A stretch of DNA of 21,647 nt from assembly GCA_021890795.1 (NCBI GenBank), contig JAKKUO010000046.1:1-21647 (forward strand). Reading direction: 5' to 3'. This DNA is from Bacillota bacterium (GTDB lineage Bacteria; Bacillota; Sulfobacillia; Symbiobacteriales; ZC4RG38). A model generated the notes under the pieces. That model had not been told where the DNA came from. It did not search any database and saw only the letters and a program-made list of their open reading frames with translations. The position numbers were made by a program, and so were the translations under genes. Below, in pieces: positions 939 to 21,568 of this stretch. Each line of letters opens with the position of its first letter. The first letter of the stretch is position 1.

Positions 939-1296
939 TCCACGTCTCCTCCCTTCGCGGGGGACAAGGCCTGGCATCGGTTTCCGTAGGCAAGATTCAC
1001 AGGGAGTCGTGGCCTTTGTGGGGGTTCTCCCCCCGTGGGGATCACCCCCGGTCCGAAGCCTGCCATGACCGGTGGTTCCTGGCTGATATGGATATTTCGC
1101 TACAAGAACTGACATTTCCTCCCTCTGCGCACGGCCCCAGCCCCACACCTGCCGTTCTGCCCGGCACCTGCCGTCCTGAGGTTCGCTGATGGCAAGCGCA
1201 CAAACCATTGCTATCAGAATCGATCGTCATTCACGAACGGTCTTGCCGGCTGCTGCATCTACATCAACGAGACCATTACGACCAGGAGGTGTGCCG

Positions 1297-2997: not shown

Positions 2998-3000
2998 CCC

Positions 3001-3558: not shown

Positions 3559-3579
3559 CCGGCGGCTCCCAGCCGCCGG
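3559..3579 (+). terminator. GC-rich stem-loop (9-bp stem, 3-nt loop; ccggcggct ccc agccgccgg) immediately after the nfeD stop. Possibly a weak terminator or processing hairpin, since there is no real U-tract.
   Basis: Perfect inverted repeat read directly. It is followed by ttgacg.. (only 2 U), so termination efficiency is doubtful. Confidence 0.35.
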
Positions 3580-3626
3580 TTGACGCTTCCCTCCCCTGCC
3601 GATACAATTGAATCGTAACTTTACGA
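3580..3626 (+). promoter_or_regulatory. sigmaA-type promoter of the zur-lgt operon with a Zur-box-like operator overlapping the transcription start. Promoter: TTGACG, 17-nt spacer, TACAAT. Operator: TCGTAAC-TTTACGA at 3613-3626.
   Basis: -35 TTGACG at 3580-3585, 17-nt spacer, -10 TACAAT at 3603-3608. The palindrome tcgtaa ct ttacga resembles the Firmicutes Zur box TCGTAATnATTACGA. It sits between the -10 and the zur start. Confidence 0.5.
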
Positions 3627-3632
3627 ATTAGG

Positions 3633-4067
3633 ATGGTGCCCCTGTTGAGCCTGGATGCCATCGTTGCAGCGGTAAAGGCCCGGGGCCTCAAGATCACCCC
3701 CCAGCGGCTGGAGATCCTCCGGGTCCTGGCCGCGGCGGAGGAGCCCCTCACAGCGCAGGAGATCCTGCGGGCCGTCCGGGCCACCCAGCCCCAGGTAAGC
3801 CTGGACACCATCTACCGGAACCTGGCCCTGCTCACCGAACAGGGACTGATCGGCCAGGTCAACCTGCAGAACCGGGAGAGCGCCCGGTACGAGCTGCAGT
3901 CCGAAGGCCGGCACCACCACCACATGGTCTGCCTGGGCTGCGGCAAGAGCTTCTGCGTGGAACTCTGCCCCTCGGCCCTGACCACCGTCCGGCCCCGGGA
4001 GGACCCGGGCTTCAAGGTGGTCGGGCACGCCTTTGAGGTCTACGGCTACTGCAGCAACTGCCAGTAA
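3633..4067 (+). CDS. zur: Fur-family zinc uptake regulator Zur.
   Basis: Collinear with B. subtilis Zur: VSLDTIYRNLALLTEQGLI; HHHH-MVCLGCGKSFCVELCP (His cluster plus CxxC) and GHAFEVYGYCSNC (second CxxC). The Zur-specific ESCP/ELCP and GHxFE(I/V)YG motifs distinguish it from Fur and PerR. The ATG at 3633 abuts the SD; TTG at 3645 (in frame, 6 nt after AGGATGGTG) is the more plausible start. Confidence 0.8.
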   Translation: MVPLLSLDAIVAAVKARGLKITPQRLEILRVLAAAEEPLTAQEILRAVRATQPQVSLDTIYRNLALLTEQGLIGQVNLQNRESARYELQSEGRHHHHMVCLGCGKSFCVELCPSALTTVRPREDPGFKVVGHAFEVYGYCSNCQ

Positions 4068-4078
4068 CGGAGGTCGCC

Positions 4079-4876
4079 GTGGTGAACTTTCTGGTGATCG
4101 ATCCCGTCGCGGTGCACTTGGGACCTCTAGAGATCCGCTGGTACGGGATCATCGTGGTCAGCGCCATCCTCGCCGCCGTCGGGCTGGCCAGCCGGCTCGC
4201 CGCCCGCCGGGGGCTCGACCCGGAGTTCGTGCCGGACCTGGCCCTGTGGGCGGTACCGGCGGGGGTAATCGGCGCCCGGCTGTACGAGGTCTTCGTCCTG
4301 CAGTGGCCGTACTATCGCGCACACCTATGGGAGATCCCCATGATCTGGCACGGCGGCCTGGCGATCCACGGCGGGGTCCTGGGGGGCGTCCTGGTGGGCC
4401 TCTGGTACGCCCGGCGCCGGGGGCAGCCCTTCCTGCCCTGGGCGGACGTCGCGGCGCCGGGGCTGCTGCTCGCCCAGGCCATCGGCCGGTGGGGCAACTT
4501 TTTCAACCAGGAGGCCTACGGCGTCGCCACCACCCCGGAGTTCATGAGCCGGTTCCCCGCCTGGTTCCGGGAGCAGATGTTCATCGACGGCGCCTACCGG
4601 CACCCGACCTTCCTCTACGAAAGCCTCTGGAACCTTTTGGGCGCCGGGCTCCTGCTCCTCTTCTTCCGGAGACGGCCGCCGGCGGGAAGCGTCTTCTTCG
4701 CCTACCTGGTGGTCTACAACGTCGGCCGGTTCCTCATCGAAGGGATCCGGATGGACAGCACTTTCTTCGCCGGGGGCCTCCGGGTCGCCCAGGTGGTGGC
4801 CGCGGCCCTGGTCCTCCTCGGGCTGGCGGGCCTCATCTGGCGCCGGGGCTGGACCCGGGAGCAGCCGGAAGGGTAG
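4079..4876 (+). CDS. lgt: Prolipoprotein diacylglyceryl transferase Lgt.
   Basis: GTG start 5 nt after GGAGG and 11 nt after the zur stop. Multi-TM protein with the Lgt signature GRWGNFFNQEAYG and conserved Y..H.P..YE motifs. Length 265 aa. Confidence 0.9.
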   Translation: MVNFLVIDPVAVHLGPLEIRWYGIIVVSAILAAVGLASRLAARRGLDPEFVPDLALWAVPAGVIGARLYEVFVLQWPYYRAHLWEIPMIWHGGLAIHGGVLGGVLVGLWYARRRGQPFLPWADVAAPGLLLAQAIGRWGNFFNQEAYGVATTPEFMSRFPAWFREQMFIDGAYRHPTFLYESLWNLLGAGLLLLFFRRRPPAGSVFFAYLVVYNVGRFLIEGIRMDSTFFAGGLRVAQVVAAALVLLGLAGLIWRRGWTREQPEG

Positions 4877-5062: not shown

Positions 5063-6733
5063 TCAAAACCCTGTCTCCGTCCCCACCGGCGGCCGGGGCG
5101 CCGGGGCGGGGGTCTCGCCACCGAAGAGAAGCCGCAGGTGCTGGACCTTCTGCCAGGCCAGCTCCTCCACCCGGGCGATGTAGGTCCCCGGGTGGCTCGG
5201 GTTCTCGGGGGCCTTCAGCAGCCAGTTGGCCGGGGCGTAGAACCACGCGGAGGTAGCCCCGGCCCCCAGGCCGATGACCGTTTGCCGGCGCTCCATCATC
5301 TGGATGTTGTAGATGCTCTCGGTGCCGGGGCGGGCGTAGCCCACGTTCTCCAGGCTTCCCACCATGTACTTCTGCCGGTAGAGGTAGTAGGGGTGCTGCC
5401 CCAGGCTCCGGGCGGTGGCCGCGGCCTCTGCCACCAGAGCCTCCGCCTCCTGGGGGGTGAGGCGCCGGAGCACCTCGGGCCCGGCCCCTTCCCCGTGGAG
5501 CCGGGAGCCGCGCTTGACCGCCAGGGTGTGGACCGTCAGGTTGTCCGGCGCCAGCCGGCGCATGTCCGCCAGGGTCTGGGCCACCTCCGCCGGCCCCTCG
5601 CCGGGCAGACCGATGATGATGTCGCAGTTGACCACAAAGGGGTGGGGGTGCCGGCGGACCAGGTCGTAGGCCCGGTAGAACTTCTCCACCGTGTGGATCC
5701 GCCCCAGGTGGCGCAGGGTCGCCTGGACGGTAGTCTGGGGGTTGACGCTCACCCGGGTGACCCCGTGGGCCGCCATCGCGTCGAGCTTGAACCGGTTGAA
5801 GGTCTCCGGCCGCCCCCCCTCGACGGTGTACTCCCGGGGCCGCTGCCCCCGGAGGAGGGCCCGGTCGATCTGCTCCAGCAGCCCGGCGAAGTCCCGGTCC
5901 GGCGGGCTGGTGGGGGTGCCGCCCCCCAGGTAGAGGCTCTCGATCCGGAGGCCCAGCTCCGCCACCGCGGCGCCGATGATCTCCAGCTCCCGGTGGAGGG
6001 CGGCGAGGAAGTGGGGCAGCTCCCCCCGGTGCTCCTGGAGGGGGTAGATGGAGAAGGAGCAGAAAGAGCAGATGGTGGGGCAATAAGGGATGCCGATGTA
6101 GACCGAGATCGCCCGGGGGTCGTACCGCTCCGGATCCCCGGCCCCGTGGCGGAGGAAGGGTCGCTGCCGGGCCGCCACCTCTGTCACCAGGTCGATCTTG
6201 TCCGGCCGCACCCGGTACTCCTCGGCCAGGTACCGGCGTACCTCCTCCATGGGGAGCCCCCGGTCCAGGAGGTCGTGGACCAGCTTGGTGGGCCGCACCC
6301 CGGTGAGGATGCCCCACCCCGGGGCGATCCCCGTCAGGCCCCCGAGGACTGCCAGCATCAGCCGCCGGGCAGCCCGGCGGAGCCGGTGGTCGTACTGCCG
6401 GGGGCTCCAGTCGGGCTGCCCGGCGACCATCTCTTCCTGTGCCTCCCGGCGGCCGTCGGGAGCCGCGGCCTCCACCCGCACCCGCCAGCGGATCGGCCGG
6501 GGCTCGGCCGCCGTCCCGGGCATCTCATCGGGCCCTGCATCCGCGGGCAGGGCCGTCACCGTCACCTGCCAGGCCGGGCCGGAGGCGGCAGCCGAGGCGG
6601 CGGCGTCCGCGGGGGCGTCGGGCAGGTCGATGGCCAGCTCGCCGCCGGGGAAGAAGACCTGCCCCAGCTGCTGCAGATCCGGGGCGAAGATCGGGCTGTT
6701 GGCCTGGAGCCTTGCAACCACGGGCATGGGCAA
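5063..6733 (-). CDS. hemZ: Oxygen-independent coproporphyrinogen-III oxidase-like radical SAM protein HemZ.
   Basis: Radical-SAM CxxxCxxC (CPTICSFC). Blocks match B. subtilis HemZ: PGWGILTGVRPTKL, ISVYIGIPYCPT, LYLGGGTPTS, YYLYRQKYMVGSLENVGYARPGTESIYNIQMMERRQTVIGLGAGATS. It has a HemZ-type N-terminal extension. ATG at 6733 with GGAGGG 6 nt upstream. Confidence 0.85.
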   Translation of the reverse strand: MPMPVVARLQANSPIFAPDLQQLGQVFFPGGELAIDLPDAPADAAASAAASGPAWQVTVTALPADAGPDEMPGTAAEPRPIRWRVRVEAAAPDGRREAQEEMVAGQPDWSPRQYDHRLRRAARRLMLAVLGGLTGIAPGWGILTGVRPTKLVHDLLDRGLPMEEVRRYLAEEYRVRPDKIDLVTEVAARQRPFLRHGAGDPERYDPRAISVYIGIPYCPTICSFCSFSIYPLQEHRGELPHFLAALHRELEIIGAAVAELGLRIESLYLGGGTPTSPPDRDFAGLLEQIDRALLRGQRPREYTVEGGRPETFNRFKLDAMAAHGVTRVSVNPQTTVQATLRHLGRIHTVEKFYRAYDLVRRHPHPFVVNCDIIIGLPGEGPAEVAQTLADMRRLAPDNLTVHTLAVKRGSRLHGEGAGPEVLRRLTPQEAEALVAEAAATARSLGQHPYYLYRQKYMVGSLENVGYARPGTESIYNIQMMERRQTVIGLGAGATSAWFYAPANWLLKAPENPSHPGTYIARVEELAWQKVQHLRLLFGGETPAPAPRPPVGTETGF

Positions 6734-8013: not shown

Positions 8014-8475
8014 TCATGGGGCCGCATCGCCCCGGCGGGGGCTTTCCACGAGGACGGTCACCGGGCCGTCGTTCACCAGCTCTACCTCCATGTGGGCCTG
8101 GAACCGGCCAGTGGCCACCGGCACCCCCAGGGACCGGAGTTCGGCGCAGAACCGCTCGTACAGGGGCTCGGCCACCTCCGGCCGAGCCGCCTGCTCAAAG
8201 CTCGGCCGGCGGCCCCGGCGGGTGTCGGCGTAGAGGGTGAACTGGCTGACCACCAGCGCTGCCCCGCCCACCTCCAGGAGGGAGCGGTTCATCTTGCCGG
8301 CCTCGTCCTCCCAGATCCGCAGGTGGGCGACCTTCTCTGCCAGGTACCGGGCATCCTCCGGGGTATCGTCCCGGGCCACCCCCAGGAGGACCACGTATCC
8401 CCGGCCGATCTCCCCGACCACCTCGCCGCCCACCGTCACCCGGCCCCGGGAAACCCGCTGCACCAGCGCCCGCAT
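8014..8475 (-). CDS. dtd: D-aminoacyl-tRNA deacylase.
   Basis: MRALVQRV... SQFTL and NDGPVT motifs. 153 aa. The start ATG overlaps the relA stop (TGATG). Confidence 0.9.
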
Positions 8476-10784
8476 CAGCCGCTGACACTCCTTCGGGCTC
8501 TGCTTTGCCTGACTACCCGCCGCACATCCAGCACGTCCGGGACCCGGCGGAGCTTCTGGAGGACGTACTGCAACTGGTTCAGGTCCCGGATCTCCAGCAC
8601 CATGTCGATGATCGCCGTGCCGTCCCGGTTGCCCCGGGAGAAGGAGTTGAGGACGTTGATCCGGCTGTCGGCGACGACGCCGGCCACGTCGGCCAGAAGG
8701 CCCGCCCGGTCCACCCCGACGATCTGGATCTCCACCGGGTGGGCGGCGCTGTACCCTTCCTCCCAGCTACACTCGATCAGCCGGTCCGACTCTTTGGCCA
8801 TGTGAGCCATATTGGGGCAGTCCAGCCGGTGGACAGCCACGCCCCGCCCCCGGGTGACATAGCCGATGATCGGGTCGCCGGGCACCGGGCTACAGCACCG
8901 GCTGAACCGGACCAGCACCCCGTCGACCCCCTTGACCCGGATCCCGCTGGAGACCCGCCGGTACCCTTCCCAGTCCTTCCGTTCGGTCACCACAGGAGTC
9001 CCTTGGGCCCCCGGGGTCCCGGTGGCCTCGCCGGCCTCGGCACGCTTGCGGGCCTGCTCCCGCTCGTAGAGGTCGTGGAGCCGGGCCGCCACCGAGGAGG
9101 CGGAGAGGGTGCCGATGCCGATGGCGACGTACAGCTCTTCCTCCGAGGCGAGGTTGTGCTTCCGGCAGATCTCTTCCAGCCACTCGGACCGGCAGAGCTG
9201 GTGCACCTCGTGGCCGAGCCGGCGGATCTCCCGCTCCAGGGCCTCCTTGCCCCGGGCCAGGTTCTCCTCCCGGCGCTCCTTCTTGAAGAACTGCCGGATC
9301 TTGTTCTTGGCGGTGGAGGTCTTGACGATCTTCAGCCAGTCCAGGCTGGGTCCCGGGCTGTTCTTAGAGGTAAGGATCTCTACGATGTCCCCGTTCTTCA
9401 GGGGCGAGTCCAGGGGGACGATCTTGCCGTTGACCTTGGCCCCGACGCACCGGTGGCCGATCTCCGTGTGGATGGAGTAGGCGAAGTCGATGGGGGTGGC
9501 CCCGGCGGGCAGGTCCACCACCCGTCCCTTGGGGGTGAAGACGAAGACCTGGTCCGCGAAGATGTCCACCTTGACGGCCTCGATGAAGTCCCGGGCCTCC
9601 CGCATCTCCTGGTGCCATTCCAGGAGGCTCCGGAGCCAGGAGAGCTTCTGGTCGAAGTCCTTGTCGGTCTTCCCTTCCTTGTACCGCCAGTGGGCCGCGA
9701 CGCCGTACTCCGCGGTTCGGTGCATCTCCCAGGTGCGGATCTGGATCTCGAAGGGCTCCCCGTGGGGCCCCACCACTGTAGTGTGCAGCGACTGGTAGAG
9801 GTTGGCCTTGGGGGTGGCGATATAGTCCTTGAAGCGGCCGGGAAGGGGCCGCCAGTAGGAGTGGATCACCCCCAGGGCGCCGTAGCAGTCCTTCACCTCG
9901 TCGACGATCACCCGGACGGCGATGAGGTCGTAGATCTCGGTGATATCCTTGCCCTGCTGGTACATCTTCCGGTAGATGCTGTACAGGTGCTTGGGCCGCC
10001 CGGAGATGTCGGCCTTGATCCCGACCTCTGCCAGCCGCTGGCCGATCTGCTCCATCAGCTCCCGGGTGATGCTCTCCCGCTCCGCCCGCTTCCGAGCCAC
10101 CAGCTGCGCGACGTGCCGGTACTTCTCCGGCTCGAGGTACCGGAAGGCCAGGTCCTCCAGCTCCCACTTGATGTCCGCCATCCCCAGCCGGTGGGCCAGG
10201 GGCGCGTAGATCTCCAGGGTCTCCTGGGCCTTGCGCCGCTGGGTCTCCGGCGGCCAGGCCCAGGCGGTCCGCATGTTGTGGAGCCGGTCCGCCAGTTTGA
10301 TCAGGATGACCCGGAGGTCCTTGGCCATGGCCAGGAACATCTTCCGGAGGTTCTCGGACTGGGCCTCTTCCTTCGAGGTGAAGTCCAGCTTCTCCAGTTT
10401 GGTGACCCCGTCTACCAGGGAGGCCACTTCCTTGCCGAACTTCTCCTCGATCTGCTGCAGGCTGACGCCGCAGTCCTCACAGACGTCGTGAAGCAGTGCG
10501 GCGGCGATGGTGGCCGGGTCCATCTGGAGCTTCGCCAGGATGCCGGCCACCTCCAGCGGGTGCTGGATGTACGCGTCCCCGGATTTTCGGAACTGACCCG
10601 CGTGGGCCTGGTCAGCCAGGGCAAAGGCCTCATCCACCAGGGTCAGATCCGCATCCGGCAGGTACCGCCGGATCAGTTGTTTCAATGTCTCCAGGTCCAC
10701 GGGCTCACCCCCTCTGCGGGGACGGTACGGCGACCCCGGCCCCTCCGAATTCCGGGAAAGGGCCGGGGCAGGGCCGGTGGCCAT
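8475..10784 (-). CDS. relA: Bifunctional (p)ppGpp synthetase/hydrolase RelA/SpoT (Rel).
   Basis: HD hydrolase domain ([10 protein letters not shown]...HD), synthetase domain ([12 protein letters not shown]...DLIAVRVIV), and TGS and ACT domains. The first 28 codons ([28 protein letters not shown]) are low complexity. GTG at 10700 (GGGGGTGA 4 nt upstream) matches the B. subtilis RelA N-terminus and is the likely real start. Confidence 0.9.
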
Positions 10785-11342: not shown

Positions 11343-14129
11343 TTACGCCGGGGCACGCGCCGCGGGCCAGGGCCCCGGCGCACCGCAAAGGGCGTCCCGG
11401 CAACGGCCAAGGAACATGCGCCCCACCGTGCCCCGCCGGTACCGGGGACTGTCGCTGAGATTCATTTTACCATGTATACCGCTCGCCGCGGGGGTAAGTG
11501 CGATCCGATCCGCATCCAGCCCCGCAGCCAGCCCCAGTTCCTCGAAGATCCGGACCGCGGCCCAGATCCGCAGCCGGTTCCAGGGCCCCAGGGGCTCCCG
11601 CCCCCGGGCGGCCCACAGATCCGCCCACTCCGCCAGGGACCGGGCCCCGCCGGCGGCGCGGAGGAGCCGGAAGACCTCCACCAGCTCCGGCCGGCCGGGG
11701 TAAGGCCAGGCCAGGGTCCGCTCCAGAAGCGCCCAGTGGTGGGGCTCCCAGGCCCGGCAGACGGGGCCGCCGGGCCGGACCGCCCGGGCCAGGGCCGCGG
11801 CCTGGGCCAGGTGGTAAGGCGGGTGCAGGGCCACCGCTGCGGCAAAGGCGGCCTCCGGCAGCGGCTGGCCCCAGGTGGTGACCACCACCCCGGGCTCCTC
11901 GGCCCCGCCCCCGGGACAGGACTCCCCGGGCCACCAGAGGCAGACCTGGCCCCCGGCCGGGGTGAGGAGCGGCCGGAGGGCCCCGGCCACCGGAAGCATC
12001 GCCCAGGGACTGGCCACCAGGACCAGCACCCGCCCCCCGGCCCCCAGCCGGGCGATGGCCTCAAAGAGGCCGTCCTCCGCCCCAGCCGCCCCGGGAGCCC
12101 CGGGGCCGGCCGCCGGGTCCGGTTCCCCCGCCGCCGGATCCGGAGCCGCCGCCTCCGGGTCCGGATCCGTCTCCGCCAGGCTCGGGTCCTGGGCCAGGGC
12201 GGGCCCGGGCTGGGCTGGCATGGATTCGCTCAGGCCGGGCTCGGTGCCCGCGGCGACCTCCCGGTCCGCCGCCCCCGCCGCCTGGGCCTCCGCCAGGGGC
12301 ACCCACCGGGGCAGGGGCCCCGGGTCCGCCGCCGCCTCCACCCCCGCCAGGGGGTCCCAGGCCAGGAGCCGGGGCAGGGTAAGGAGGGCGTACTCCTCCA
12401 GCCCCTCCGCCGGCCCGGGCACCTGGAGGTCGGTGACGTTCAGCTGCAGCCGCTCGGTGCCATTCCACCGGTTGATCTCCGGGGTGAAGGCCACCTGCAC
12501 CGGCACCGGCGCCGGCGGCAGGGCCGCCCCCGGGGCCCCGGGCGCGGCCAGGCCGAAGCCGATGCCGTCCAGCACCTGCCCGCCGGTCCGGAGCCGGAAC
12601 TTCAGGTGGGTGCCGTCGCCCACCGCCCGGCCCTCCAGCAGTTCCCCCCGGGTGACCAGCCGGGGACCGGGGTTACCCAGGCCGTAGGGCTCCAGCCGGG
12701 CCAGTTCCGCCACCAGTTCCGGCGTGATCTGGTCCCCGGGCACCAGGCCGTCCACCGGCAGCGCGGGCACCAGGTCCTCCTCCGAGAGCCACTCCCGGAC
12801 CAGCCGGTTGAGCCGCTCCCGGAGCGCCGGCACGTTCCGGGCTTTGAGGGTCATCCCCGCGGCCATGGCGTGGCCGCCGAACTTCTCCAGAAGGTCCCGG
12901 CACTCGCAGAGGGCCCGGTAGATGTGGAACCCCGGGATGCTCCGGGCGGACCCCCGGGCCTCGTCCCCCTCGATGGCCAGGAGCACCGCGGGCCGGTAGG
13001 TGGCCTCCACCACCCGGCTGGCGACAATGCCCACCACCCCGTGGTGCCAGCCCTCCCCGGCCAGCACCGCGGCGTAAGCCCGGTCTTCCGGCGGCTGGGC
13101 CGCGAGCTGCGCCATCGCCTCCTGGAGGATCCGCTGCTCCACCTGCTGCCGGGCCTGGTTCTCCCGGTCCAGGCGCCGGGCGATCTCCAGAGCCCGGTCC
13201 GGGTCCTCGGTGAGGAAGAGCTCCACCCCGACCCGGGCATCCCCCATCCGGCCGAGGGCATTGACCCGGGGGCCCAGGGCAAAGGCCAGGTGCCAGGCGG
13301 TGACCGGCCGGTCCTCCCCCAGGCCGGCGACCCGCTTCAGGGCCGCCAGCCCCGGCCGGGGGGCTGCCTCCAGCCGGGCCAGCCCTTCCCGGACCAGGAT
13401 CCGGTTCTCCCCCACCAGGGGCACCAGGTCCGCCACCGTGGCCAGGGCCACCATGTCCAGGAGTTCGTCCAGCAGCGGGTCCCCGGGCCCCAGGAGGGCC
13501 TGGGCGAGCTTGAAGGCCACCCCCGCCCCGCTCAGCCCCTTGAAGGGGTAGGGGCAGTCAGGCCGTTTGGGGTTCACCACCGCGGCCGCGGCCGGGAGCA
13601 TCGGCCCCGGCTCGTGGTGGTCGGTGATCACCAGGGTGATGCCCAGTTCCCGGGCCGCCGCGGCCTCGGCCACGGCGGAGATGCCGGTATCCACGGTCAG
13701 GATGAAGTCGAACCCGGCCGCCCGGGCCCGGTCCAGGGCCGACCGGTTCAGCCCGTACCCCTCGGTGAACCGGTTGGGGATGTAGTACTCCACCGGTACC
13801 CCCAGGCGGCGGAGCACCGTGACCAGGACCGCGGTGCCCACCAGCCCGTCCACATCGTAGTCACCGTACACCAAAACAGGCTGCCGGGCTGCGACCCGCT
13901 CGCGGATCAGCCCGACGGCCCGATCCATGTCCTTCATCTGCAAGGGATCCAGGAGCCGGTCCCGGCGCGGGTCCAGGAACTCCCGGGCCGCTTCCGGGTC
14001 GGCGTACCCCCGGGCCACCAGCACCTGGGCCAGCACCGGGGAGATGCCCAGGGACTCCGCGAGGCCCAGGGCCAGGGCCGGGTCCGCGCCAGCCCAACGC
14101 CAGCGCCGGGCCCTGTAGGGTCGTGCCAC
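11343..14129 (-). CDS. recJ: Single-stranded-DNA-specific exonuclease RecJ, with a long C-terminal extension.
   Basis: DHH motifs (VYGDYDVDG, ITDHHEP), DHHA1, OB-fold. The N-terminus aligns with B. subtilis RecJ. 928 aa, with a Pro/Ala/Asp-rich linker and a ~250-aa C-terminal domain as in Firmicutes RecJ. GTG start at 14129. Confidence 0.85.
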   Translation of the reverse strand: MARPYRARRWRWAGADPALALGLAESLGISPVLAQVLVARGYADPEAAREFLDPRRDRLLDPLQMKDMDRAVGLIRERVAARQPVLVYGDYDVDGLVGTAVLVTVLRRLGVPVEYYIPNRFTEGYGLNRSALDRARAAGFDFILTVDTGISAVAEAAAARELGITLVITDHHEPGPMLPAAAAVVNPKRPDCPYPFKGLSGAGVAFKLAQALLGPGDPLLDELLDMVALATVADLVPLVGENRILVREGLARLEAAPRPGLAALKRVAGLGEDRPVTAWHLAFALGPRVNALGRMGDARVGVELFLTEDPDRALEIARRLDRENQARQQVEQRILQEAMAQLAAQPPEDRAYAAVLAGEGWHHGVVGIVASRVVEATYRPAVLLAIEGDEARGSARSIPGFHIYRALCECRDLLEKFGGHAMAAGMTLKARNVPALRERLNRLVREWLSEEDLVPALPVDGLVPGDQITPELVAELARLEPYGLGNPGPRLVTRGELLEGRAVGDGTHLKFRLRTGGQVLDGIGFGLAAPGAPGAALPPAPVPVQVAFTPEINRWNGTERLQLNVTDLQVPGPAEGLEEYALLTLPRLLAWDPLAGVEAAADPGPLPRWVPLAEAQAAGAADREVAAGTEPGLSESMPAQPGPALAQDPSLAETDPDPEAAAPDPAAGEPDPAAGPGAPGAAGAEDGLFEAIARLGAGGRVLVLVASPWAMLPVAGALRPLLTPAGGQVCLWWPGESCPGGGAEEPGVVVTTWGQPLPEAAFAAAVALHPPYHLAQAAALARAVRPGGPVCRAWEPHHWALLERTLAWPYPGRPELVEVFRLLRAAGGARSLAEWADLWAARGREPLGPWNRLRIWAAVRIFEELGLAAGLDADRIALTPAASGIHGKMNLSDSPRYRRGTVGRMFLGRCRDALCGAPGPWPAARAPA

Positions 14130-14262: not shown

Positions 14263-16281
14263 TCACCGGCGGCTCCGGCACCGGAGCCGCTCCCGGTGGG
14301 CGATACGAACCAGCGCCTCCTCGTCCAGCTCCTCCACCACGTGGAGGGTTCCCCCCGCGGCCCGGGCCAGGTCCTCCAGGTACCGCCGGGAGGGCATCAG
14401 GCCGATGCACCCGAAAGGCACCCGGCTCCGGGCCACCTGGCGGGCGGCCTCCAGGGCGTCGGCCAGGGGGTCCAGGCCCCACTTGGGCACCGTGGGGATG
14501 CCGTCGGTAATGAGGAGCACCAGGGGCCGGCGCACCCGGCTGTCCCGGATCAGCTCCAGGGCCCCGGTGAGGCCATGGGCCATGGGGGTGAGGCCCATGG
14601 GCTGGATCCGGGCGAGCCCTTCCTCCACCCGGCCCCAGTCCCGGGTGAAGGGGACGTGGACCCGGACGTCCCGCTCCTGGAAGGCCACCACCGCGATCCG
14701 GTCCCGGGTGCTGGTCAGAAGATGCCGGACCAGGTGCTTGGCCGCCAGGATCCGCCGGCCGGCCATGGAGGCGCTGGCATCGATGAGGAGGCAGAGGTAC
14801 AGGGGCTGGTCCCCCGCCCGGGTGTAGACGTGGAGATCCCGCCGCTCCAGGGTGAGCCGGCCGGGGCGGGCGTTCCGGGTCCGGGGCTCCGGGGGCTGCG
14901 GCCTCGGGTCCTGCTGCGCCCGGGCGGGGGGCTCCGGGGGCCGCGACCCCGGGCCCTGCTGCGCCTGGGCCCGCTCCAGGTACGTGCGGCGGATCCCCGC
15001 TACCACCGTCTCCGGCACCGCCAGGTGGGCGATGGGCTGCCCTGGCGCCACCGGGACCACTCCCCGGACCGGCCCGTACCGCACCGCGGGCGAGGGCCGG
15101 TCCCCCAGCCGGGCCGCGGTGGGCAGGGGGCCCCGGGGGACCCGGCGGATGCGCTTGCGGAACCGGAGCTTCACCTCCCGGAGGTGCCGGTCGAAGTACT
15201 CCGCCAGGGCAAGCCCCGCCGGGGTGAGCCGCACCGCCCGGCCCTCCCGGTAGATGAGCCCCTGGGCCTCCAGCTCCCGGAGGAGGTACGGGGCGTGCAC
15301 ACCGGTGGACAGGCCGCCGGAACTGGGGCGCCCCGCCCGGAGCAGGTCCAGGGTCCGCTTCAGCTCGTCGGGGCTGCCGATCCGCCGGGAGAGGGCGAGG
15401 ACCGCCTGGAGCCGCTCCTCGGCCGCTGCCACCGGCACCGGCCACGGAACCCCGGCGGGCTCCGGACCGGCCCCGGGCTCCAGGGCATCCTCCGGAACGG
15501 TTCCCCGGGGGCCCACCCGGCCCCCCCGGGCACCGGGGTCGCCCCCCGGGGCACCCCCGCCCCCGGGCCCAGGGGCCCCGGGTTCCCCGGCCGCGGGGGA
15601 GGTGCCGGGCTCCCGGAGGAGGGAGTCGGAGACATCGGTGTAGTCGCTCATGTCCAGGGGGACGGCCCCTCTGCCTGCGGGAGCCCCCCGGAGCCGGTCG
15701 ACCCTCCGGATCTCCAGCCCCTGGGCCAGCACCTCCTCTTCCAGGGCGAGGATGAGGGGGTAGAGGAGCGGCAGCCCTCCGTCGCCGATCTCGGCGGCCA
15801 GGTGGATGTGGTTCCGGTGGGCGGCCCGGAGGCTGGGCCGGGTGCCGTAGGTCAGGTCCCCGGTGACCCGGCCGCCCCCGGTGCTGGTCTGGACGTCCAC
15901 GTAGTGGGCCAGGTCCGGCTGACCGCACTGGCTGAGGACCCGCCGGACCGCCGCGGCCACCCGCCGGTGGTCCACCGGCCCCACCTGGTGGAAGAGGTCG
16001 ATGTGCAGCACCCGGTCCCGGTCCCGGCGGCCGTAGAAGACCTGGCCGGCGTCCGCGTGGCCCAGGACCACCACCTCTTCGGGAACGGCGGGATCCATCA
16101 GGTGGACCCGGCGGCTGACCACCGCCGCCTCCCCGAACCGCACCCCCTCGCCCCGGTGAAGGTGGGCGGCCACCTTCTCCACCCAGTCCATGCCGGCCGC
16201 GGCCCCGGTCCCCCTGCCCATGCCCCCGTCCAGGCCGGTGATGCCCTGGGTGCTGCTCAGGCCCCCGTCCCGGACGGTCAT
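14263..16281 (-). CDS. VWA (MIDAS) domain protein, ChlD/BchD-like at the C-terminus. It has an uncharacterised N-terminal ~200-aa domain, Gly/Pro linkers and a possible winged-helix region.
   Basis: The C-terminal LYLCLLIDASASMAG...RIAVVAFQERDVRV...LTPMAHGL...LVLLITDGIPT matches the D-x-S-x-S...T...D MIDAS pattern. It is collinear with the Mg-chelatase D-subunit VWA. The middle YLLRELEAQGLIYREGRAVRLTPAGLALAEYF looks like a wHTH. I do not recognise the N-terminal domain (HRNHIHLA, TGGGRVTGDL). The ATG overlaps the upstream gene's stop (ATGA). Confidence 0.7.
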   Translation of the reverse strand: MTVRDGGLSSTQGITGLDGGMGRGTGAAAGMDWVEKVAAHLHRGEGVRFGEAAVVSRRVHLMDPAVPEEVVVLGHADAGQVFYGRRDRDRVLHIDLFHQVGPVDHRRVAAAVRRVLSQCGQPDLAHYVDVQTSTGGGRVTGDLTYGTRPSLRAAHRNHIHLAAEIGDGGLPLLYPLILALEEEVLAQGLEIRRVDRLRGAPAGRGAVPLDMSDYTDVSDSLLREPGTSPAAGEPGAPGPGGGGAPGGDPGARGGRVGPRGTVPEDALEPGAGPEPAGVPWPVPVAAAEERLQAVLALSRRIGSPDELKRTLDLLRAGRPSSGGLSTGVHAPYLLRELEAQGLIYREGRAVRLTPAGLALAEYFDRHLREVKLRFRKRIRRVPRGPLPTAARLGDRPSPAVRYGPVRGVVPVAPGQPIAHLAVPETVVAGIRRTYLERAQAQQGPGSRPPEPPARAQQDPRPQPPEPRTRNARPGRLTLERRDLHVYTRAGDQPLYLCLLIDASASMAGRRILAAKHLVRHLLTSTRDRIAVVAFQERDVRVHVPFTRDWGRVEEGLARIQPMGLTPMAHGLTGALELIRDSRVRRPLVLLITDGIPTVPKWGLDPLADALEAARQVARSRVPFGCIGLMPSRRYLEDLARAAGGTLHVVEELDEEALVRIAHRERLRCRSRR

Positions 16282-18092
16282 GGCCCGTAGTCGCCCCCTA
16301 GCTCCGCCTGGGTACGGACCAGCTCCCCGGGCCCCAGGGTGCCCAGGGGGCGGGCCGGGTGGGGCGGCGCCTGGGGCGGGACGGCCTCAGGGCTCGCGGG
16401 GCGGAGGGGCCTGCCGTCCCCGTCCCGGAGGCCCTCTTCCCGGCCGGGTCCCCGGGCCCCGGCCGCAGCCCCTGCCACGGGACCCCCGCCCCGGCCGGAC
16501 CCCCGGAGGGCGGCTTTCACCCGCTCCCAAAAGGGCCGGCCGTCCCGGTGTCCCCCACCCGGACCGGGGGAAGCAGGCCCCGGGCCGGAGCCCTGGCCCA
16601 GCCCCTGGACGCCGGGGCCGTGGCCCCCGGTGTGAGGTCCGGAGAGCCCCAGGCCGCCGCCGGCGGCCCCCCGGCCAGACCCGGCAGGGCCGGCGCCCCC
16701 AGTGCCGGCACCAGGGCTGGCGCCGGCGGCGCCGCCGGGCCCCGCCCCGTTCCACCCGGCCCCGGGGGCAAGGCCGGCGGTGCCCTGGGCGGCCGGCTGC
16801 AAGAAGGACCCCGGCGGGGCGAGGCCCCCCTCTCCCTGCCCCGGGGTCGCCCCCGCGCGGGGCCGGGCCGCACCCGGGGCCAGACCCGGCCCCGGCCGGG
16901 TGGGCCCGGAACCGGCCAGGACCCCCGGGGCTGCCGGCCGGCCCCCGGCCTCGGCCCGGGCTAGGGCCGCGGCGGCTGCCCCGGGGCCGCCCGGTCCGGC
17001 ACTCCCCGAGGCCCCGCTGCCTTCCCCGGGGCCCCGCAGGGTCCGGAGGTACTGGAGGATCCGGCCCAGGGTCTCCCCGTCCACCCGGTGCTGCAGGGCC
17101 AGGGGGGCCACCGCCAGCAGGTCCTCCCCCGCCGCCTCCTTCCGGTCCCCGAGGCAGGCGGAGAGCCGCACCCCCCACAGGATCGCCTGGGCGGCCCGGA
17201 GGCTCTCCAGGCCGAACCGGGCGTAAATCTCCGCGACCTGCCGCCGGACCCAGGGAGGGACCGCCACCTCCTGCAGCCGGGCCGGCCGGGCAGCCATCCG
17301 GGTCCGGTAGGCCTCCAGCCGGGCCGCCTGCGCGGTGGCGGGGGCCCCGCCCAGGGCCAGGGTGCCCTCGAAGTGGGCCAGGATCTCCGCCACCACCTCC
17401 GCCTCCCCCGGCCGGCCGGTGGGGATGACGAAATCGAACCGATCCGAGAGCTGCCGGCGGATCTCTTCCAGGGGCCCGGGGTCCTCGTCCGGGTTGGAGG
17501 CCGCCCAGACCGAGATGGAGACGCTGAGCTCCACCCCCGGCAGGCCCGTCTCCTCGATCTGCACCCGGCCGGGCTTGGTGCCCATCACGTCCAGCAGCAC
17601 GTCCGCCAGTTCCGGGGCGGTCTCCGCCAGCCGGTTGATCTCGTCGACAAAGACGATCCCCCGGTGGGCCCGGGGCAGGGTCCCCGGAAGCAGGGCCGCC
17701 TCGGGCTTCTCCGCATCCACCAGGCGGCCGAGGTCGATGGATCCCACCACGGTGCCGACCTTGGCGGAATGGGAGATCTCCAGAAAGGGCATCGGGATCC
17801 ACTCGGTGCCCAGGGCGGCCACCGCCTCGGGGTCCAGGTCCCGGTGCCGGGGGCAGTGGGGCGCCCCGGGGTCGCAGTTGTACGGGCAGCCCTGGATCCG
17901 GCGGATCCGGGGCAGGAGCCGCTGGGCTCCCCGCAGGATCGTCGTCTTGCCGGTGCCCCGGAGCCCCTCCGCGTGGAGGTGCAGGGGCTGCCCCGCCAGG
18001 GTGGAGAGGATCGACATCTCCACCGCCTGAAGCAGGGCGGCATTGCCGCTGTGCCGGACCAGACCCAGGAGTGACTCGAACCGTGGCTCCAC
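16278..18092 (-). CDS. ChlI/BchI-family (Mg-chelatase I-subunit-like) AAA+ ATPase with a ~260-aa Gly/Pro-rich low-complexity C-terminal tail.
   Basis: Walker A GLRGTGKTT and Walker B IVFVDEINRL. The sensor/arginine-finger region PGRVQIEETGLPGVELSVSISVWAASNPDEDPGPLEEIRRQLSDRFDF is collinear with BchI/ChlI. Cys/His insert GCPYNCDPGAPHCPRH. GTG start with GGAGGG 6 nt upstream. The tail (nt ~16281-17060) is over 80% GC. Confidence 0.75.
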   Translation of the reverse strand: MEPRFESLLGLVRHSGNAALLQAVEMSILSTLAGQPLHLHAEGLRGTGKTTILRGAQRLLPRIRRIQGCPYNCDPGAPHCPRHRDLDPEAVAALGTEWIPMPFLEISHSAKVGTVVGSIDLGRLVDAEKPEAALLPGTLPRAHRGIVFVDEINRLAETAPELADVLLDVMGTKPGRVQIEETGLPGVELSVSISVWAASNPDEDPGPLEEIRRQLSDRFDFVIPTGRPGEAEVVAEILAHFEGTLALGGAPATAQAARLEAYRTRMAARPARLQEVAVPPWVRRQVAEIYARFGLESLRAAQAILWGVRLSACLGDRKEAAGEDLLAVAPLALQHRVDGETLGRILQYLRTLRGPGEGSGASGSAGPGGPGAAAAALARAEAGGRPAAPGVLAGSGPTRPGPGLAPGAARPRAGATPGQGEGGLAPPGSFLQPAAQGTAGLAPGAGWNGAGPGGAAGASPGAGTGGAGPAGSGRGAAGGGLGLSGPHTGGHGPGVQGLGQGSGPGPASPGPGGGHRDGRPFWERVKAALRGSGRGGGPVAGAAAGARGPGREEGLRDGDGRPLRPASPEAVPPQAPPHPARPLGTLGPGELVRTQAELGGDYGP

Positions 18093-18142: not shown

Positions 18143-18181
18143 AGGAAAAAACTGCGGCCCCCCGGCCACCGGGGAGCCGCT
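18143..18181 (-). terminator. Rho-independent terminator downstream of the CDF gene on the minus strand.
   Basis: On the minus strand: gcggc t ccccgg tgg ccgggg g gccgc followed by agtttttt. This is a nested GC stem plus a U6 tract. Confidence 0.6.
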
Positions 18182-18259
18182 GGGCCTCTTCCTCGGGAGC
18201 CGGGGAGCCGCTACGCCTCCTCCTTGGGAACCGGAGAGCCGTCATGCCTCCTGCTCGGG
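18166..18259. repeat. Three tandem ~31-bp direct repeats (ccggggagccgctNNgcctcNtccNNggg) spanning the CDF stop codon and 3' UTR.
   Basis: Copy 1 is 18166-18197, copy 2 is 18198-18228, copy 3 is 18229-18259. Each carries AGGAGG-like SD sequence on the minus strand. Confidence 0.55.
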
Positions 18260-19131
18260 ACCGGGGGCGGGGCGGGCTCCACGTGGACCATCACCCGGTC
18301 GATGGCGCACCAGCCCCGGAGGTGGCTCTCCACCCGCTCGGCCACCCCGTGGCCCTCGGCCACCGTCAGGTTCCGGTCCACCCCGATGGTGACGTCCACC
18401 AGCACCGCGGGCCCCATGTACCGGGCCCGGACGTCGTAGACCGCCGCCACCCCTTCCACCTCCGCCACCCGGGCCCGGATCGCCTCCAATTGGGCCGCGT
18501 CGAAGCCGTCCAGGAGCTGGTGGGCCCCTTCCCGGCCGATCTCCCAGGCGGTCCGGAGGATGAACCCCGCCACCACCAGCCCGGCCACCGGGTCGAGCCA
18601 GGGCAGCCCGAGTTCCGCCCCGGCCACGCCGGCGAGGGCGACCAGGCTGGAGAGGGCGTCCGAGAGGTGGTCCGCGGCAGCCGCCAGGAGGGCCGGGCTC
18701 CCGAGCCGGCGGCCCAGACGCAGGTTGTACTGCCAGACCGCCACCATGACCAGGGCGCCGAAGGCGGCGGCCCAGGCCGCCTCCGGCCGGGGCGCCGCCC
18801 GGGCCGGGTCCAGCAGGGCCCGCACCGCGCCGAGGCCGATCTCCACCGCCACCGTCGCCATGATCCCGCTGACGATGACCGTGGCGAGGGTCTCCGCCCG
18901 CTGGTGGCCGTACTGGTGGTCCGCGTCCGCGGGCCGGCCTGCCACCCGCATGGCCAGCAGCACCGCCAGGGTGCCGGCGATGTCGGTCAGGTTGTTGATC
19001 CCGTCGGCCACCAGGGCCCGGGAGCCGGACCAGAAACCTACCCCGAGTTTGAGCCCGGCCAGGCCGATGTAGGCCGCCAGCCCGACCGCCGCACCCCGCT
19101 GGCCCCGTTCGTAGCGGGCGAGATCGGTCAC
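18211..19131 (-). CDS. Cation diffusion facilitator (CDF) family divalent-metal efflux transporter.
   Basis: Six TM helices. CDF signature HQYGHQRAETLA. C-terminal cytoplasmic domain (VYDVRARYMGPAVLVDVTIGVD...). GTG at 19131 has GGAGG 9 nt upstream. The track start (TTG 19182) is less likely. Confidence 0.8.
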   Translation of the reverse strand: MTDLARYERGQRGAAVGLAAYIGLAGLKLGVGFWSGSRALVADGINNLTDIAGTLAVLLAMRVAGRPADADHQYGHQRAETLATVIVSGIMATVAVEIGLGAVRALLDPARAAPRPEAAWAAAFGALVMVAVWQYNLRLGRRLGSPALLAAAADHLSDALSSLVALAGVAGAELGLPWLDPVAGLVVAGFILRTAWEIGREGAHQLLDGFDAAQLEAIRARVAEVEGVAAVYDVRARYMGPAVLVDVTIGVDRNLTVAEGHGVAERVESHLRGWCAIDRVMVHVEPAPPPVPSRRHDGSPVPKEEA

Positions 19132-19290
19132 GGTGCTTCGCCTCCGGCCAAGAGAGTTGGTCGAGGGAAAAACCCCCGACAAGGCGGAGAGACCCGCGGG
19201 ACCTCCGCCCGACGGGTCTCCGGCTCCGCCCTTGCGCCCATATCCATTTCTGAACCCGAACGTTTCGTCTCAGATTCAGTATACCACGGC
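19132..19290 (-). promoter_or_regulatory. CDF promoter/leader: extended -10 (TGgTATACT, 19278-19286 on the minus strand) in an AT-rich island, followed by a ~140-nt structured leader with two stable hairpins before the SD.
   Basis: Local GC falls sharply at 19235-19290. There is no convincing -35. Leader hairpins: ggagacccg..cgggtctcc (19188-19221) and gtcggggg uuuuu cccucgac (19160-19182). Confidence 0.4.
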
Positions 19291-19385: not shown

Positions 19386-20294
19386 TTACCGGGCCCGGGC
19401 AGCCCGGGAGCGCTTGCCCTCCCCGGCCTGCCGCCACCAGTACCAGATGGGGGCGGCAAAACAGATGGAAGAGTAGGCGCCGGCGACCGTGCCGATGAAG
19501 AGGGTAGCGGCAAAGTCCCGGGTGGTCTCGCCCCCGAGCCAGAGGATCGCCGCCAGCACCAGCAGAACCGTCACCGAGGTGTAGAGGGACCGGGTCACGG
19601 TCTCGCTCAGGCTCCGGTTGACCAGGTCCGCCAGGCTCTCGCCCCGGCCCTTCTGTCGCTGCAGGTTCTCCCGGATCCGGTCGAAGATGATGATGGTGTC
19701 GTTTACGGAGTACCCGATAATGGTCAGCACCGCGGCCACAAAGGCCGGCCCCACCTCAAGGCCCAGCAGGGAGACCATTCCCAGGGTGACCAGGACGTCG
19801 TGGACCACGGCGAGGATCGCGGTGACGCCGGAGCGGAACTCAAACCGGAAGCCGATGTAGATCAGCTGGAAGGCTGTGGCGATCAGCACCGCCAGGACCG
19901 CGTTCCGGATCAGCTCCGACCGGATGGTGCCGCTGACGTCATCGACCGACAGGACCGTCACCTCGGTGCCCAGCCGCTCCTTCAGTTTGGCCACCAGGTC
20001 CAGCCGCTCCTGGTCCGTGAGCCGGGGGGTGGTGACGATAAAGTCGGTCCCGACCTCCCCGCCACCGACCTTCTTGACCGCCGGGCTCTTGCCGCTCAGC
20101 TCCGCCACGGCCTCCCGGACCTGGGTCACCGTCAGCTCCTGGCCGAACTGGAGCTCCAACTCGGTGCCGCCGGTGTAGTCGACGCTCAGGTTGATGCCCC
20201 GGGTCGCGAGGCTGACCAGGCCCACGGCGATCACCACCAGGGAGATGGCGAGCCAGACCTTGGCCCACTTGATGAAGTCAAACTGCCGCCGCAT
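19386..20294 (-). CDS. secF: Protein translocase subunit SecF.
   Basis: 302 aa. Collinear with SecF (FDFIKW..., GINLSVDYTGGT, six TM helices). The ATG overlaps the secD stop (TGATG). Confidence 0.9.
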   Translation of the reverse strand: MRRQFDFIKWAKVWLAISLVVIAVGLVSLATRGINLSVDYTGGTELELQFGQELTVTQVREAVAELSGKSPAVKKVGGGEVGTDFIVTTPRLTDQERLDLVAKLKERLGTEVTVLSVDDVSGTIRSELIRNAVLAVLIATAFQLIYIGFRFEFRSGVTAILAVVHDVLVTLGMVSLLGLEVGPAFVAAVLTIIGYSVNDTIIIFDRIRENLQRQKGRGESLADLVNRSLSETVTRSLYTSVTVLLVLAAILWLGGETTRDFAATLFIGTVAGAYSSICFAAPIWYWWRQAGEGKRSRAARAR

Positions 20295-21568
20295 CAGGCC
20301 TGCACCTCCTCCCGGATGCCGAAGAGACTGCGCTTGCTAAACCAGCCGGTGTTGACCGCCAGCACCAGGAGCCATCGGCTGAGGGTGACCGCGGTGAAGA
20401 AGGAGATGGCGGTGCCCAGCCACAGGGTGAGGCCAAAGCCCTTGATGGGCCCGGTGCCGAAGTACTGGAGGATCAGCCCCGCGGCGATGGTGGTGAGGTT
20501 GGCGTCCGCGACCGCCGCAAAGGCCCGGTGGAAGCCGGCGTCGATGGCGCTGCGGAGGCCCGTGCCCTTCCGGAGCTCATCCTTGATCCGCTCGAAGATG
20601 ACGATGTTGGCGTCCACGGACATGCCAAGGGAGAGGACGATACCGGCGATGCCGGGGAGGGTGAGCACCGCGTCAATCGCGATGAGCGCCCCGGCGGTGA
20701 GGAAGAGGTAGACGATCAAGGCCAGGTCCGCCAGGAAGCCGGGGAGCCGGTAGACCGCGACCATGAAGAGCATCACCAGGGCCACGCCCACCGCCCCGGC
20801 CTGCAGGCTCTTCTGGAAAGCCGCCTGGCCCAGGGTGGGGCTGATGCTCCGGTTCTCGATGATGTTGAGCTTCACGGGCAGGGCGCCGCCGTTAATGAGG
20901 CTGGCGAGATCGGCAGCCTCTTGCGCGGTGAAGTCGCCGATGATCTGGGCCTGCCCGCCGGTGATGACGCTCTGCACCACCGGGTTGGAGATCATCTCAT
21001 CGTCGAGGTAGATAGCGATGGGCTGGCCCAGATACTTCCGGGTCGCCTCTTCAAACTTCTTCGGCCCCTCGCCTTTGAGGGAGAGGGCCACCACGAACTT
21101 CCCGGAGGCCGGGTCCTGGACCGCCTGGGCCCGCTCCACGTCGTTGCCGGTGAGGACCTCCTGGCCGTCGGGGCCGACAAACCGCAGGACCGCGGTCTTG
21201 CCCACCATCTCCCGGGCCCGCTCCACATCGTGGACGTCCGCCAGCTCGACGACGATCCGGTCCTGCCCCTCAAGCTGGATATTCGGCTCGCTCACGCCGA
21301 GGGTGTTGACCCGCCGCTCGATCACCCGGGCAGCGTCCTCCATCGCCTGCCGGGTGATGGGGGCATTGGCAGTGGGCTCCCCCTGGAGCACCAGCCGGAC
21401 CCCGCCCGCGATGTCCAGTCCCCGCTTCACGTACTGGGTCAGCGGCCAGACCCTGGAAAAGAGAAAAGCGGCCGTCAGGATCAAAAGAATCAGGGCCGGG
21501 AAGAGGACCCTGGCCCACCTGGTCCTGGCCTGCACCTTGGGCTTGTCCCCCTTCGTTTTCCGTCGCAT
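20294..21568 (-). CDS. secD: Protein translocase subunit SecD.
   Basis: 424 aa. N-terminal TM, periplasmic domain, C-terminal six-TM SecD/RND-like region (GLDIAGG, GGALP...). Directly upstream of secF. Confidence 0.9.
   Translation of the reverse strand: MRRKTKGDKPKVQARTRWARVLFPALILLILTAAFLFSRVWPLTQYVKRGLDIAGGVRLVLQGEPTANAPITRQAMEDAARVIERRVNTLGVSEPNIQLEGQDRIVVELADVHDVERAREMVGKTAVLRFVGPDGQEVLTGNDVERAQAVQDPASGKFVVALSLKGEGPKKFEEATRKYLGQPIAIYLDDEMISNPVVQSVITGGQAQIIGDFTAQEAADLASLINGGALPVKLNIIENRSISPTLGQAAFQKSLQAGAVGVALVMLFMVAVYRLPGFLADLALIVYLFLTAGALIAIDAVLTLPGIAGIVLSLGMSVDANIVIFERIKDELRKGTGLRSAIDAGFHRAFAAVADANLTTIAAGLILQYFGTGPIKGFGLTLWLGTAISFFTAVTLSRWLLVLAVNTGWFSKRSLFGIREEVQA

Follow-up and report, generated by a model that had tools for sequence, protein, structure and literature searches.

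The contig JAKKUO010000046.1 (assembly GCA_021890795.1) of a Bacillota bacterium, referred to below as the window (the whole stretch analysed, 21,647 nucleotides), carries two overlapping genes on its minus strand. The first (gene 1) encodes a BchI/ChlI-type AAA+ ATPase and the second (gene 2) a protein with a C-terminal VWA domain. The contig stems from a metagenome assembly, and a 100%-identical protein is labelled in public sources as belonging to a Firmicutes/Bacillota metagenome-assembled genome (MAG). The GC content of the window is 65–82%. Because such DNA carries long open reading frames (ORFs) in all frames, as was the case here, reading frames were accepted only where the protein is conserved in other genomes, and ORF length was not used as a criterion. 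Public gene calls for the same contig give products of 604, 672 and 928 amino acids (aa), equal to the lengths obtained here for the products of gene 1, gene 2 and recJ. The two genes and their parts are:

16278–18092, minus strand: gene 1, ATPase, 604 aa
17058–18092, minus strand: AAA+ core and lid of gene 1 (aa 1–345), from the invariant columns of an 18-sequence alignment (A3)
16371–17057, minus strand: low-complexity Gly/Ala/Pro tail of gene 1 (aa ~346–574), length varying among homologues
16281–16370, minus strand: conserved C-terminal peptide of gene 1 (last ~30 aa), from alignment A3
16278–16281, minus strand: ATGA stop/start overlap of gene 1 and gene 2, sequence 'GGGCCATGACCG'
14263–16281, minus strand: gene 2, VWA protein, 672 aa
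15598–16194, minus strand: family-specific N-terminal domain of gene 2 (aa 30–228), alpha+beta, two-layer
15421–15597, minus strand: low-complexity linker of gene 2 (aa 229–287), length variable or linker missing in homologues
14947–15420, minus strand: middle region of gene 2 (aa 288–445) with winged helix-turn-helix (wHTH), basic helix, disordered stretch and 'LAVPET' helix
14263–14814, minus strand: VWA domain of gene 2 with complete MIDAS, from a Pfam match and invariant alignment columns

Gene 1 starts with GTG, preceded by GGAGG 7 nt upstream, and has more than 100 homologues at 56–74% identity. Their lengths range from 383 to 604 aa, with alignment gaps confined to the region of the low-complexity tail. 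The part that matches BchI/ChlI comprises residues 39–343; the E-value for BchI in the PDB (1g8p) was 2e-19 in a single-sequence search. A family profile of 18 members yielded 7.5e-32 for ChlI (over residues 39–342), followed by MCM3 at 8.6e-4 and the MoxR-like chain 2r44 at 0.69, and by these E-values gene 1 is a chelatase-clade ATPase and not a MoxR-type one. In the Pfam scan, AAA_3 and AAA_5 gave no match at E ≤ 0.1, Mg_chelatase scored 17.1 bits (cut-off 20.3), and AAA_lid_2 was over its cut-off at aa 285–338. Invariant in the 18 homologues are Walker A (G43–T50, GLRGTGKT), Walker B (D150/E151), sensor-1 (N200), the arginine finger (R218) and sensor-2 (R299). With these motifs, gene 1 is a catalytically intact ATPase and should hence form an ATP-hydrolysing ring.

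Two further features set the ATPase family apart. An invariant Cys/His cluster (C69, C73, H79, C80 and H83, in 'GCxYNCxPxxPHCPxH'; 17844–17888, minus strand) lies, in the HMMER alignment, opposite the segment 'DPFNSDPSDP' of ChlI; it is probably a zinc site, inserted specifically in this family. The core is followed by a tail of 259 aa (G 30%, A 18%, P 15%, thus 63% Gly+Ala+Pro), encoded by DNA with a GC content of 0.84. The tail ends in a peptide with the consensus APPxxARPLxxLxxxELVxTEEEL, of which A580 and R581 are present in at least 90% of the sequences of A3. The peptide is kept even where the tail has only ~50 residues, e.g. in the 400-aa Syntrophothermus protein, and we propose it as a putative docking peptide for the gene 2 protein.

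Gene 2 has an ATG start and 48 full-length homologues, with identities down to 34%. Residues 497–657 matched VWA_2 (2.1e-15) and VWA (8.5e-8), both over the Pfam cut-offs, and 33 homologues (alignment A1) all share the MIDAS residues D501-x-S503-x-S505, T565 and D593. The closest relative in the PDB is the VWA domain of BchD (2x31_A, 1.6e-10), and the domain is collinear with the BchD C-terminus (TIGR02031 positions 404–547). Among the NCBIfam families, TIGR02442 scored highest for both genes: gene 1 matched model positions 31–312 with 133.6 bits and gene 2 positions 447–637 with 95.8 bits (cut-off 779). The two genes thus match consecutive parts of this fused model in order, and since these are its N- and C-terminal parts, the pair probably derives from a TIGR02442-like fused gene.

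A sequence-only reading of the window had described much of this: the ATGA overlap, an intact ChlI/BchI-type ATPase with a Gly/Pro tail of ~260 aa, a VWA domain with a complete MIDAS collinear with the C-terminus of ChlD/BchD, and in gene 2 a wHTH-like segment and a first ~200 aa without recognizable relatives. All of these descriptions were borne out. It had further placed the ATPase with its linker and the VWA domain on separate, translationally coupled genes; this agrees with the NTGA or TGATG stop/start overlap found in most of 36 related loci. A 'split ChlD' would be a loose name for the pair, as gene 1 is a catalytically intact I-type ATPase and the nearest one-polypeptide analogue is the fused TIGR02442 type.

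The likeness to chelatases suggests, as one rival reading, a class I tetrapyrrole chelatase motor of the ordinary kind, in which the pair would be the ChlI/ChlD-type partner of a CobN/ChlH subunit encoded elsewhere in the genome. The best NCBIfam matches of both genes (TIGR02442, 'putative cobaltochelatase', and the BchI/BchD models) and the nearest solved structures (BchI/ChlI and BchD) are in line with this, and a CbiMNQO transporter is encoded ~8 kb from the pair in Caldinitratiruptor. Moreover, BchI homologues in non-phototrophic Firmicutes are usually taken as replacements of CobST (PMC3595025). The resemblance to BchI/BchD extends to the full set of catalytic motifs, the adjacency of the genes and a flexible Pro/Gly-rich linker between the ATPase module and the VWA domain. 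However, the scores are 5–8 times under the equivalog cut-offs (for TIGR02030, gene 1 reached 97.2 bits versus 466.95), and the ATPase family is tight (over 50% identity internally) with only remote similarity to ChlI. Gene 2 lacks the AAA-like N-terminal module, homologous to subunit I, with which BchD/ChlD builds the I6D6 double ring; a His/Asp-rich head domain and a winged helix, both unrelated to it, take its place. In addition, the linker is here part of the ATPase gene, with a conserved peptide at its end, and the Cys/His cluster stands where ChlI has its DPFNSDP segment. Relative to TIGR02442, the pair occupies two overlapping genes rather than a single polypeptide and has ~460 aa of new domains before the VWA domain.

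A CobN/ChlH-like gene was found neither in the window, as the sequence-only reading had stated, nor within ±10 kb of 40 related loci. For these loci all ORFs of at least 800 aa within ±10 kb were taken; they turned out to be long RecJ genes, spurious high-GC ORFs, a GGDEF protein, an AddA-like helicase and an intein-bearing ribonucleotide reductase, and were rejected as CobN. The last of these (locus L026, 15158–19024, from a Candidatus Fermentithermobacillaceae MAG) is a ribonucleotide reductase large subunit split by an intein with a LAGLIDADG endonuclease domain. The genes next to the pair serve translation, secretion and the stringent response and are never cob, cbi or bch genes, and the carriers are non-phototrophs. 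Taken together, we consider a role as an ordinary chelatase motor improbable.

The N-terminal head domain of gene 2 was predicted with confidence (pLDDT 93.6, pTM 0.90) as a compact alpha+beta structure. The first ~200 aa gave no match in Pfam, NCBIfam, PDB sequences or PDB folds; in the Foldseek comparison of the domain with the PDB nothing was obtained at E ≤ 1e-3, and none of the Pfam families was matched consistently by 26 members of the domain, even at E ≤ 10. The possibility that the head is the degenerate AAA module of ChlD was rejected; it is a family-specific alpha+beta domain unrelated to that module. In a profile search of 1.84 billion representative proteins the domain was present in only 169 clusters, nearly all with the domain at the N-terminus of a protein of 550–650 aa. 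Nine architecturally odd or divergent members were checked, and all nine carried a VWA domain at the C-terminal end, so that in this search the domain is restricted to the head plus VWA architecture. The Syntrophothermus protein also carries it.

Sixteen residues of the head are invariant in 33 close homologues (S56, H60, D77, G79, Y83, R85, H93, D95, H98, D129, T132, H155, H158, H160, E181 and R192). At 21–31% identity every sequence retained S56, H60, D77, H93 and H98, and each of D95, H158, H160 and E181 was kept in 90% or more. Several of these residues, such as H93/D95 and H158/H160, occupy alternate positions on predicted neighbouring strands, as would suit a metal site on one side of the sheet. 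Just past the head (15517–15597, minus strand, residues ~205–225) there is an acidic/aromatic motif, 'PLDLSxYxDxxDSLLR' (with D210, S212, Y214, D219 and S220), which was seen in the main subfamily only and was modelled with lower confidence. It could be a docking or autoinhibitory peptide. The VWA partner in Syntrophomonadales (loci L007 and L047) belongs to a divergent subfamily without this motif.

The linker of gene 2 (GC 0.86) corresponds to gapped, unconserved columns of A1 (280–425). The middle region contains, in this order, a MarR-like wHTH, a basic helix of 26 residues (HLREVKLRFRKRIRR), a disordered stretch and the conserved 'LAVPET' helix. The winged helix is MarR/PadR-like, with a three-helix bundle and a beta-hairpin wing; its conservation is poor in the recognition helix, and only L337 and G356 are invariant. 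These elements allow for a machine directed at nucleic acids, in which the wHTH and the basic helix bind DNA or RNA and the His/Asp head is a metal-dependent phosphoesterase or nuclease under control of the ATPase. Such a machine could work together with RecJ, serve the stringent response or the metabolism of tRNA, or use ATP to regulate transcription of the downstream operon. Besides the MarR-type fold and the strongly basic character of the 26-residue helix, the invariant His/Asp/Glu/Arg set with a Gly-rich TGGGR loop (main subfamily) is consistent with it, as is the position of recJ, which directly follows the pair in the window and in most loci; no terminator was predicted between gene 2 and recJ in the window. 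On the other hand, the helix that precedes the wing is rich in acidic residues (…LRELEAQG…, consensus RxLExxGL) and, apart from L337 and G356, not invariant, and the PDB fold search showed the head to be unlike any known nuclease or phosphoesterase. recJ is missing from the neighbourhood in the Caldinitratiruptor, L003/L045, Syntrophomonadales and Fermentithermobacillaceae loci. No BchI-clade ATPase is known to work on nucleic acids. A nucleic-acid-directed role is thus unlikely, albeit the least so of the rival roles considered here.

The genes around the pair in the window, all on the same strand, are:

20294–21568, minus strand: secD
19386–20294, minus strand: secF
18211–19182, minus strand: exporter of the cation diffusion facilitator (CDF) family, Cation_efflux plus ZT_dimer
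18154–18180, minus strand: intrinsic-terminator-like hairpin and T-run, between the CDF gene and gene 1
11343–14129, minus strand: recJ, 928 aa
10806–11318, minus strand: apt
8475–10784, minus strand: relA
8014–8475, minus strand: dtd

Beyond dtd follow an MBL-fold hydrolase and then a MarR regulator. Elsewhere in the window, positions 1189–4067 (plus strand) encode an SPFH/Band-7 protein of 602 aa with a long Ala/Glu-rich region, then an NfeD-like protein and a Fur-family regulator, after which Lgt is found at 4079–4876; a HemN-like radical SAM protein is encoded at 5063–6733 (minus strand). In RecJ, the DHH, DHHA1 and RecJ_OB domains finish near residue 567 and are followed by a C-terminal extension of ~350 aa (11343–12389, minus strand), partly Ala/Pro/Gly-rich and without a Pfam match. 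The recJ ORFs of related loci are also long (813–1310 aa), while RecJ of L005/L006 has a normal length of 574 aa.

The conservation of this arrangement was assessed in one genome per species, with the window proteins placed by tblastn, which gave 40 loci with a full-length relative. The ATPase gene lies directly upstream of the VWA gene in every locus with enough DNA. In 28 of the 40 loci recJ and/or apt-relA-dtd lie downstream in the orientation of the pair, secD-secF precede the pair in 17, and a CDF homologue stands between secF and the ATPase gene in 4. The order (secDF)-ATPase-VWA-recJ-apt-relA-dtd is found again, at 30–74% identity, in Symbiobacteriaceae, Thermaerobacter and Fervidicola (Thermosediminibacterales), as well as in many unclassified Bacillota MAGs; Syntrophomonadaceae and Candidatus Fermentithermobacillaceae are further named carriers, and in the homologue searches the pair was restricted to Bacillota. 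A similar arrangement was also found for three homologues at 57%, 37% and 34% identity whose contexts were compared: secDF-(RND pump)-ATPase-VWA-relA-dtd in Caldinitratiruptor, secDF-ATPase-VWA-LapA-apt-relA-dtd in a biogas MAG, and yajC-x-HD-ATPase-VWA-recJ-relA-dtd in a third lineage.

In 21 loci, the percentage identities of the ATPase core and of RelA to the window proteins were compared; the two correlated with r = 0.83. Mean identities were 60.5% for the ATPase core, 60.0% for RelA and 50% for SecD. The GC content at third codon positions (GC3) is 0.94–0.96 in the folded domains of the pair and 0.90–0.94 in the neighbouring genes, and the peak of 0.82 in the GC profile of the window is due to the linkers coding for Gly, Ala and Pro. 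Relatives of either protein were absent from 2.9 million viral contigs, and no family of PADLOC-DB 2.0 was matched by either protein at E ≤ 0.1. From the synteny over 40 loci, the RelA-like divergence, the neighbour-like GC3 and the lack of viral and PADLOC matches it follows that the pair has long resided in a housekeeping cluster and was inherited vertically; it is not a recent insertion.

The sequence-only reading had regarded the pair and the CDF exporter as an acquired module that interrupts a conserved gene order. This view fails, because the order of the pair recurs across lineages, the ATPase diverges as RelA does, GC3 is like that of the neighbours, and the exporter is separate. The strong hairpin directly after the CDF gene has a stem of 12 bp with 11 G-C pairs and is followed by TTTTTT. 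As it stands between the CDF gene and gene 1, the exporter is a separate transcription unit and a sporadic, independent neighbour. A sigma-70 promoter scan upstream of gene 1 yielded no site, but such a scan is uninformative at this GC content.

A more specific form of the acquired-module view is an NTP-dependent vWA-ATPase conflict or anti-phage module, taken up horizontally together with the CDF exporter. Pairs of AAA+ and vWA proteins are indeed common in conflict systems (PMC7159879), whose vWA components, as here, carry additional fused domains (Kaur, Burroughs, Iyer, Aravind 2020); the unusual domain in the pair and the high local GC content (0.77–0.82) might be seen in the same light. 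In contrast to the vWA-MoxR conflict systems, the pair has an ATPase of the chelatase sub-clade, lacks a VMAP/effector repertoire, with no associated effector genes present, and shows no signs of mobility. It behaves as a single-copy core gene, fixed in position within a core gene cluster across families and orders. With these data and those on PADLOC, viral contigs, GC and the CDF gene, we regard a conflict module as scarcely credible. The functional suggestions of the sequence-only reading thus divide: a metal-insertion or chaperone system stays plausible, whereas conflict or defence does not agree with the core-gene-like conservation and the lack of PADLOC and viral relatives.

In two lineages the pair has been relocated. 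In Syntrophomonadales it lies upstream of gerM-racE-fumarase-rph-rdgB; at L007 (13134–20597) and L047 (11853–17109) gerM (Germane), a racemase, fumarase, rph and rdgB replace recJ-relA. In Fermentithermobacillus it lies upstream of a basic-amino-acid decarboxylase and Amidase_3; at L029 (11735–14247, Candidatus Fermentithermobacillus carboniphilus, CP062796) the genes after the pair encode an Orn/Lys/Arg decarboxylase (OKR_DC_1) and Amidase_3. This decarboxylase is reminiscent of the partnership of RavA and LdcI in E. coli; it was seen in one lineage only and may be a coincidence. Pfam annotation of the neighbours in Fermentithermobacillus (L029) and Syntrophomonadales (L047/L007) revealed no common third gene that travels with the pair.

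Some of these neighbours would suit an assembly factor linked to sporulation or germination, involved for instance in the remodelling or metalation of a spore component: in some lineages they include gerM-racE, a CwlD-like Amidase_3 or, a few genes upstream, spoIIR with a sigma factor, and the distribution is restricted to Bacillota. Neighbours of the sporulation type are, however, inconsistent between lineages, and no sporulation-type promoter was identified by the promoter scan, which covered the sigma-70 type only. Several carriers (Syntrophothermus, Thermaerobacter) are described as non-sporulating, which also speaks against this role, and we consider it very unlikely.

The reading we prefer, with about even confidence, is that the pair is a vertically inherited AAA+ motor with its VWA adaptor, of chelatase lineage (BchI/BchD, TIGR02442-like) but repurposed, which is part of the core genome in several lineages of thermophilic and for the most part anaerobic Bacillota and carries its own putative metal-binding head. 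On this reading it is neither an ordinary tetrapyrrole chelatase motor nor a foreign island. AAA+/VWA pairs follow a motor-adaptor-effector logic, in which a partner is captured by the MIDAS or peptide-binding face of the VWA protein and remodelled by the ATPase ring (PMC7159879). In the structures of CobSTN the adaptor consists of an N-terminal anchoring domain, a disordered linker and a VWA domain, with the effector CobN on the far side (bioRxiv 10.64898/2026.07.21.739949). The two-gene organization of ATPase and VWA adaptor is shared by CobS/CobT(/CobN), NorQ/NorD, CbbQ/CbbO, CoxD/CoxE and RavA/ViaA, many of which insert metals or remodel metalloenzymes, and the layout of gene 2 is similar to that of CobT. 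The motors of these systems are, however, of the MoxR type (clade 6), whereas the adjacent VWA/MIDAS adaptor gene is here paired with a BchI-type ATPase. Their effectors are known and usually encoded nearby; here none was identified, unless the fused head is the effector.

Because gene 2 shares the head-linker-VWA layout with CobT but has no AAA-like module for the stacking seen between BchD and BchI, we propose that the ATPase ring would be tethered to the adaptor via the flexible tail of Gly, Ala and Pro and the conserved acidic peptide at the C-terminus (...ELVxTEEEL), a peptide that would provide the carboxylate completing the MIDAS site, by analogy with integrin-type ligands. The His/Asp head would be the working end and, from its residue pattern, would bind one or two metal ions; it may be either an effector in cis or, if compared with the N-terminal domain of CobT, a module for docking to the ring. 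Hydrolysis of ATP would remodel the adaptor and its head and would in this way place a metal or cofactor on a client or take it off, or remodel the client otherwise. The client would be encoded away from the pair.

Several points weigh against this proposal. The docking of the tail to the MIDAS is suggested by sequence features, and the putative metal binding of the head by the pattern of residues; the divergent member P0301 lacks the HxH pair. The wHTH and the basic helix could mean that the machine acts on nucleic acid. No client gene was found beside the pair in the neighbourhoods compared, and since the context differs by lineage (recJ/relA; gerM-racE-rph; decarboxylase-amidase), it points to no functional partner.

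A bolder version of the preferred reading, which we put forward tentatively and with some doubt, takes the head domain for a novel fold that is a new kind of metal-dependent enzyme or handles metals, with a chelatase-type AAA+ motor driving it in cis. In that case the pair might be a self-contained motor-adaptor-effector system with an undescribed housekeeping role in deep-branching Bacillota; it could, for example, use ATP to metalate or repair an essential substrate, be it a protein or a nucleic acid.

An AAA+ motor with a VWA adaptor of the chelatase lineage is already known as a kind of system, and such pairs are recurring engines of metal insertion and enzyme remodelling (Mg- and Co-chelatase, NorQD, CoxDE, CbbQO). 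This pair differs in its division over two genes, in an adaptor that lacks the AAA-like module and has gained a winged helix and a head domain with no family or fold relatives, and in its housekeeping-like behaviour in several lineages of Bacillota; our literature search found nothing specific on this pair in Symbiobacterium or Firmicutes. In databases these genes are labelled magnesium chelatase subunit I/D or VWA-domain protein. The former annotation is very probably misleading, and it could inflate the predicted occurrence of chlorophyll or aerobic-type cobalamin chelation in the carriers. Overall, the family would represent a chelatase-type motor reused outside tetrapyrrole chemistry, conserved to the level of RelA in several orders of Bacillota and fused to a domain of ~200 residues that is not described in any database. 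Should the His/Asp head prove to be catalytic or to handle metals, it would define a new protein family, and perhaps also a new pathway of maturation in thermophilic anaerobes that have been little studied.

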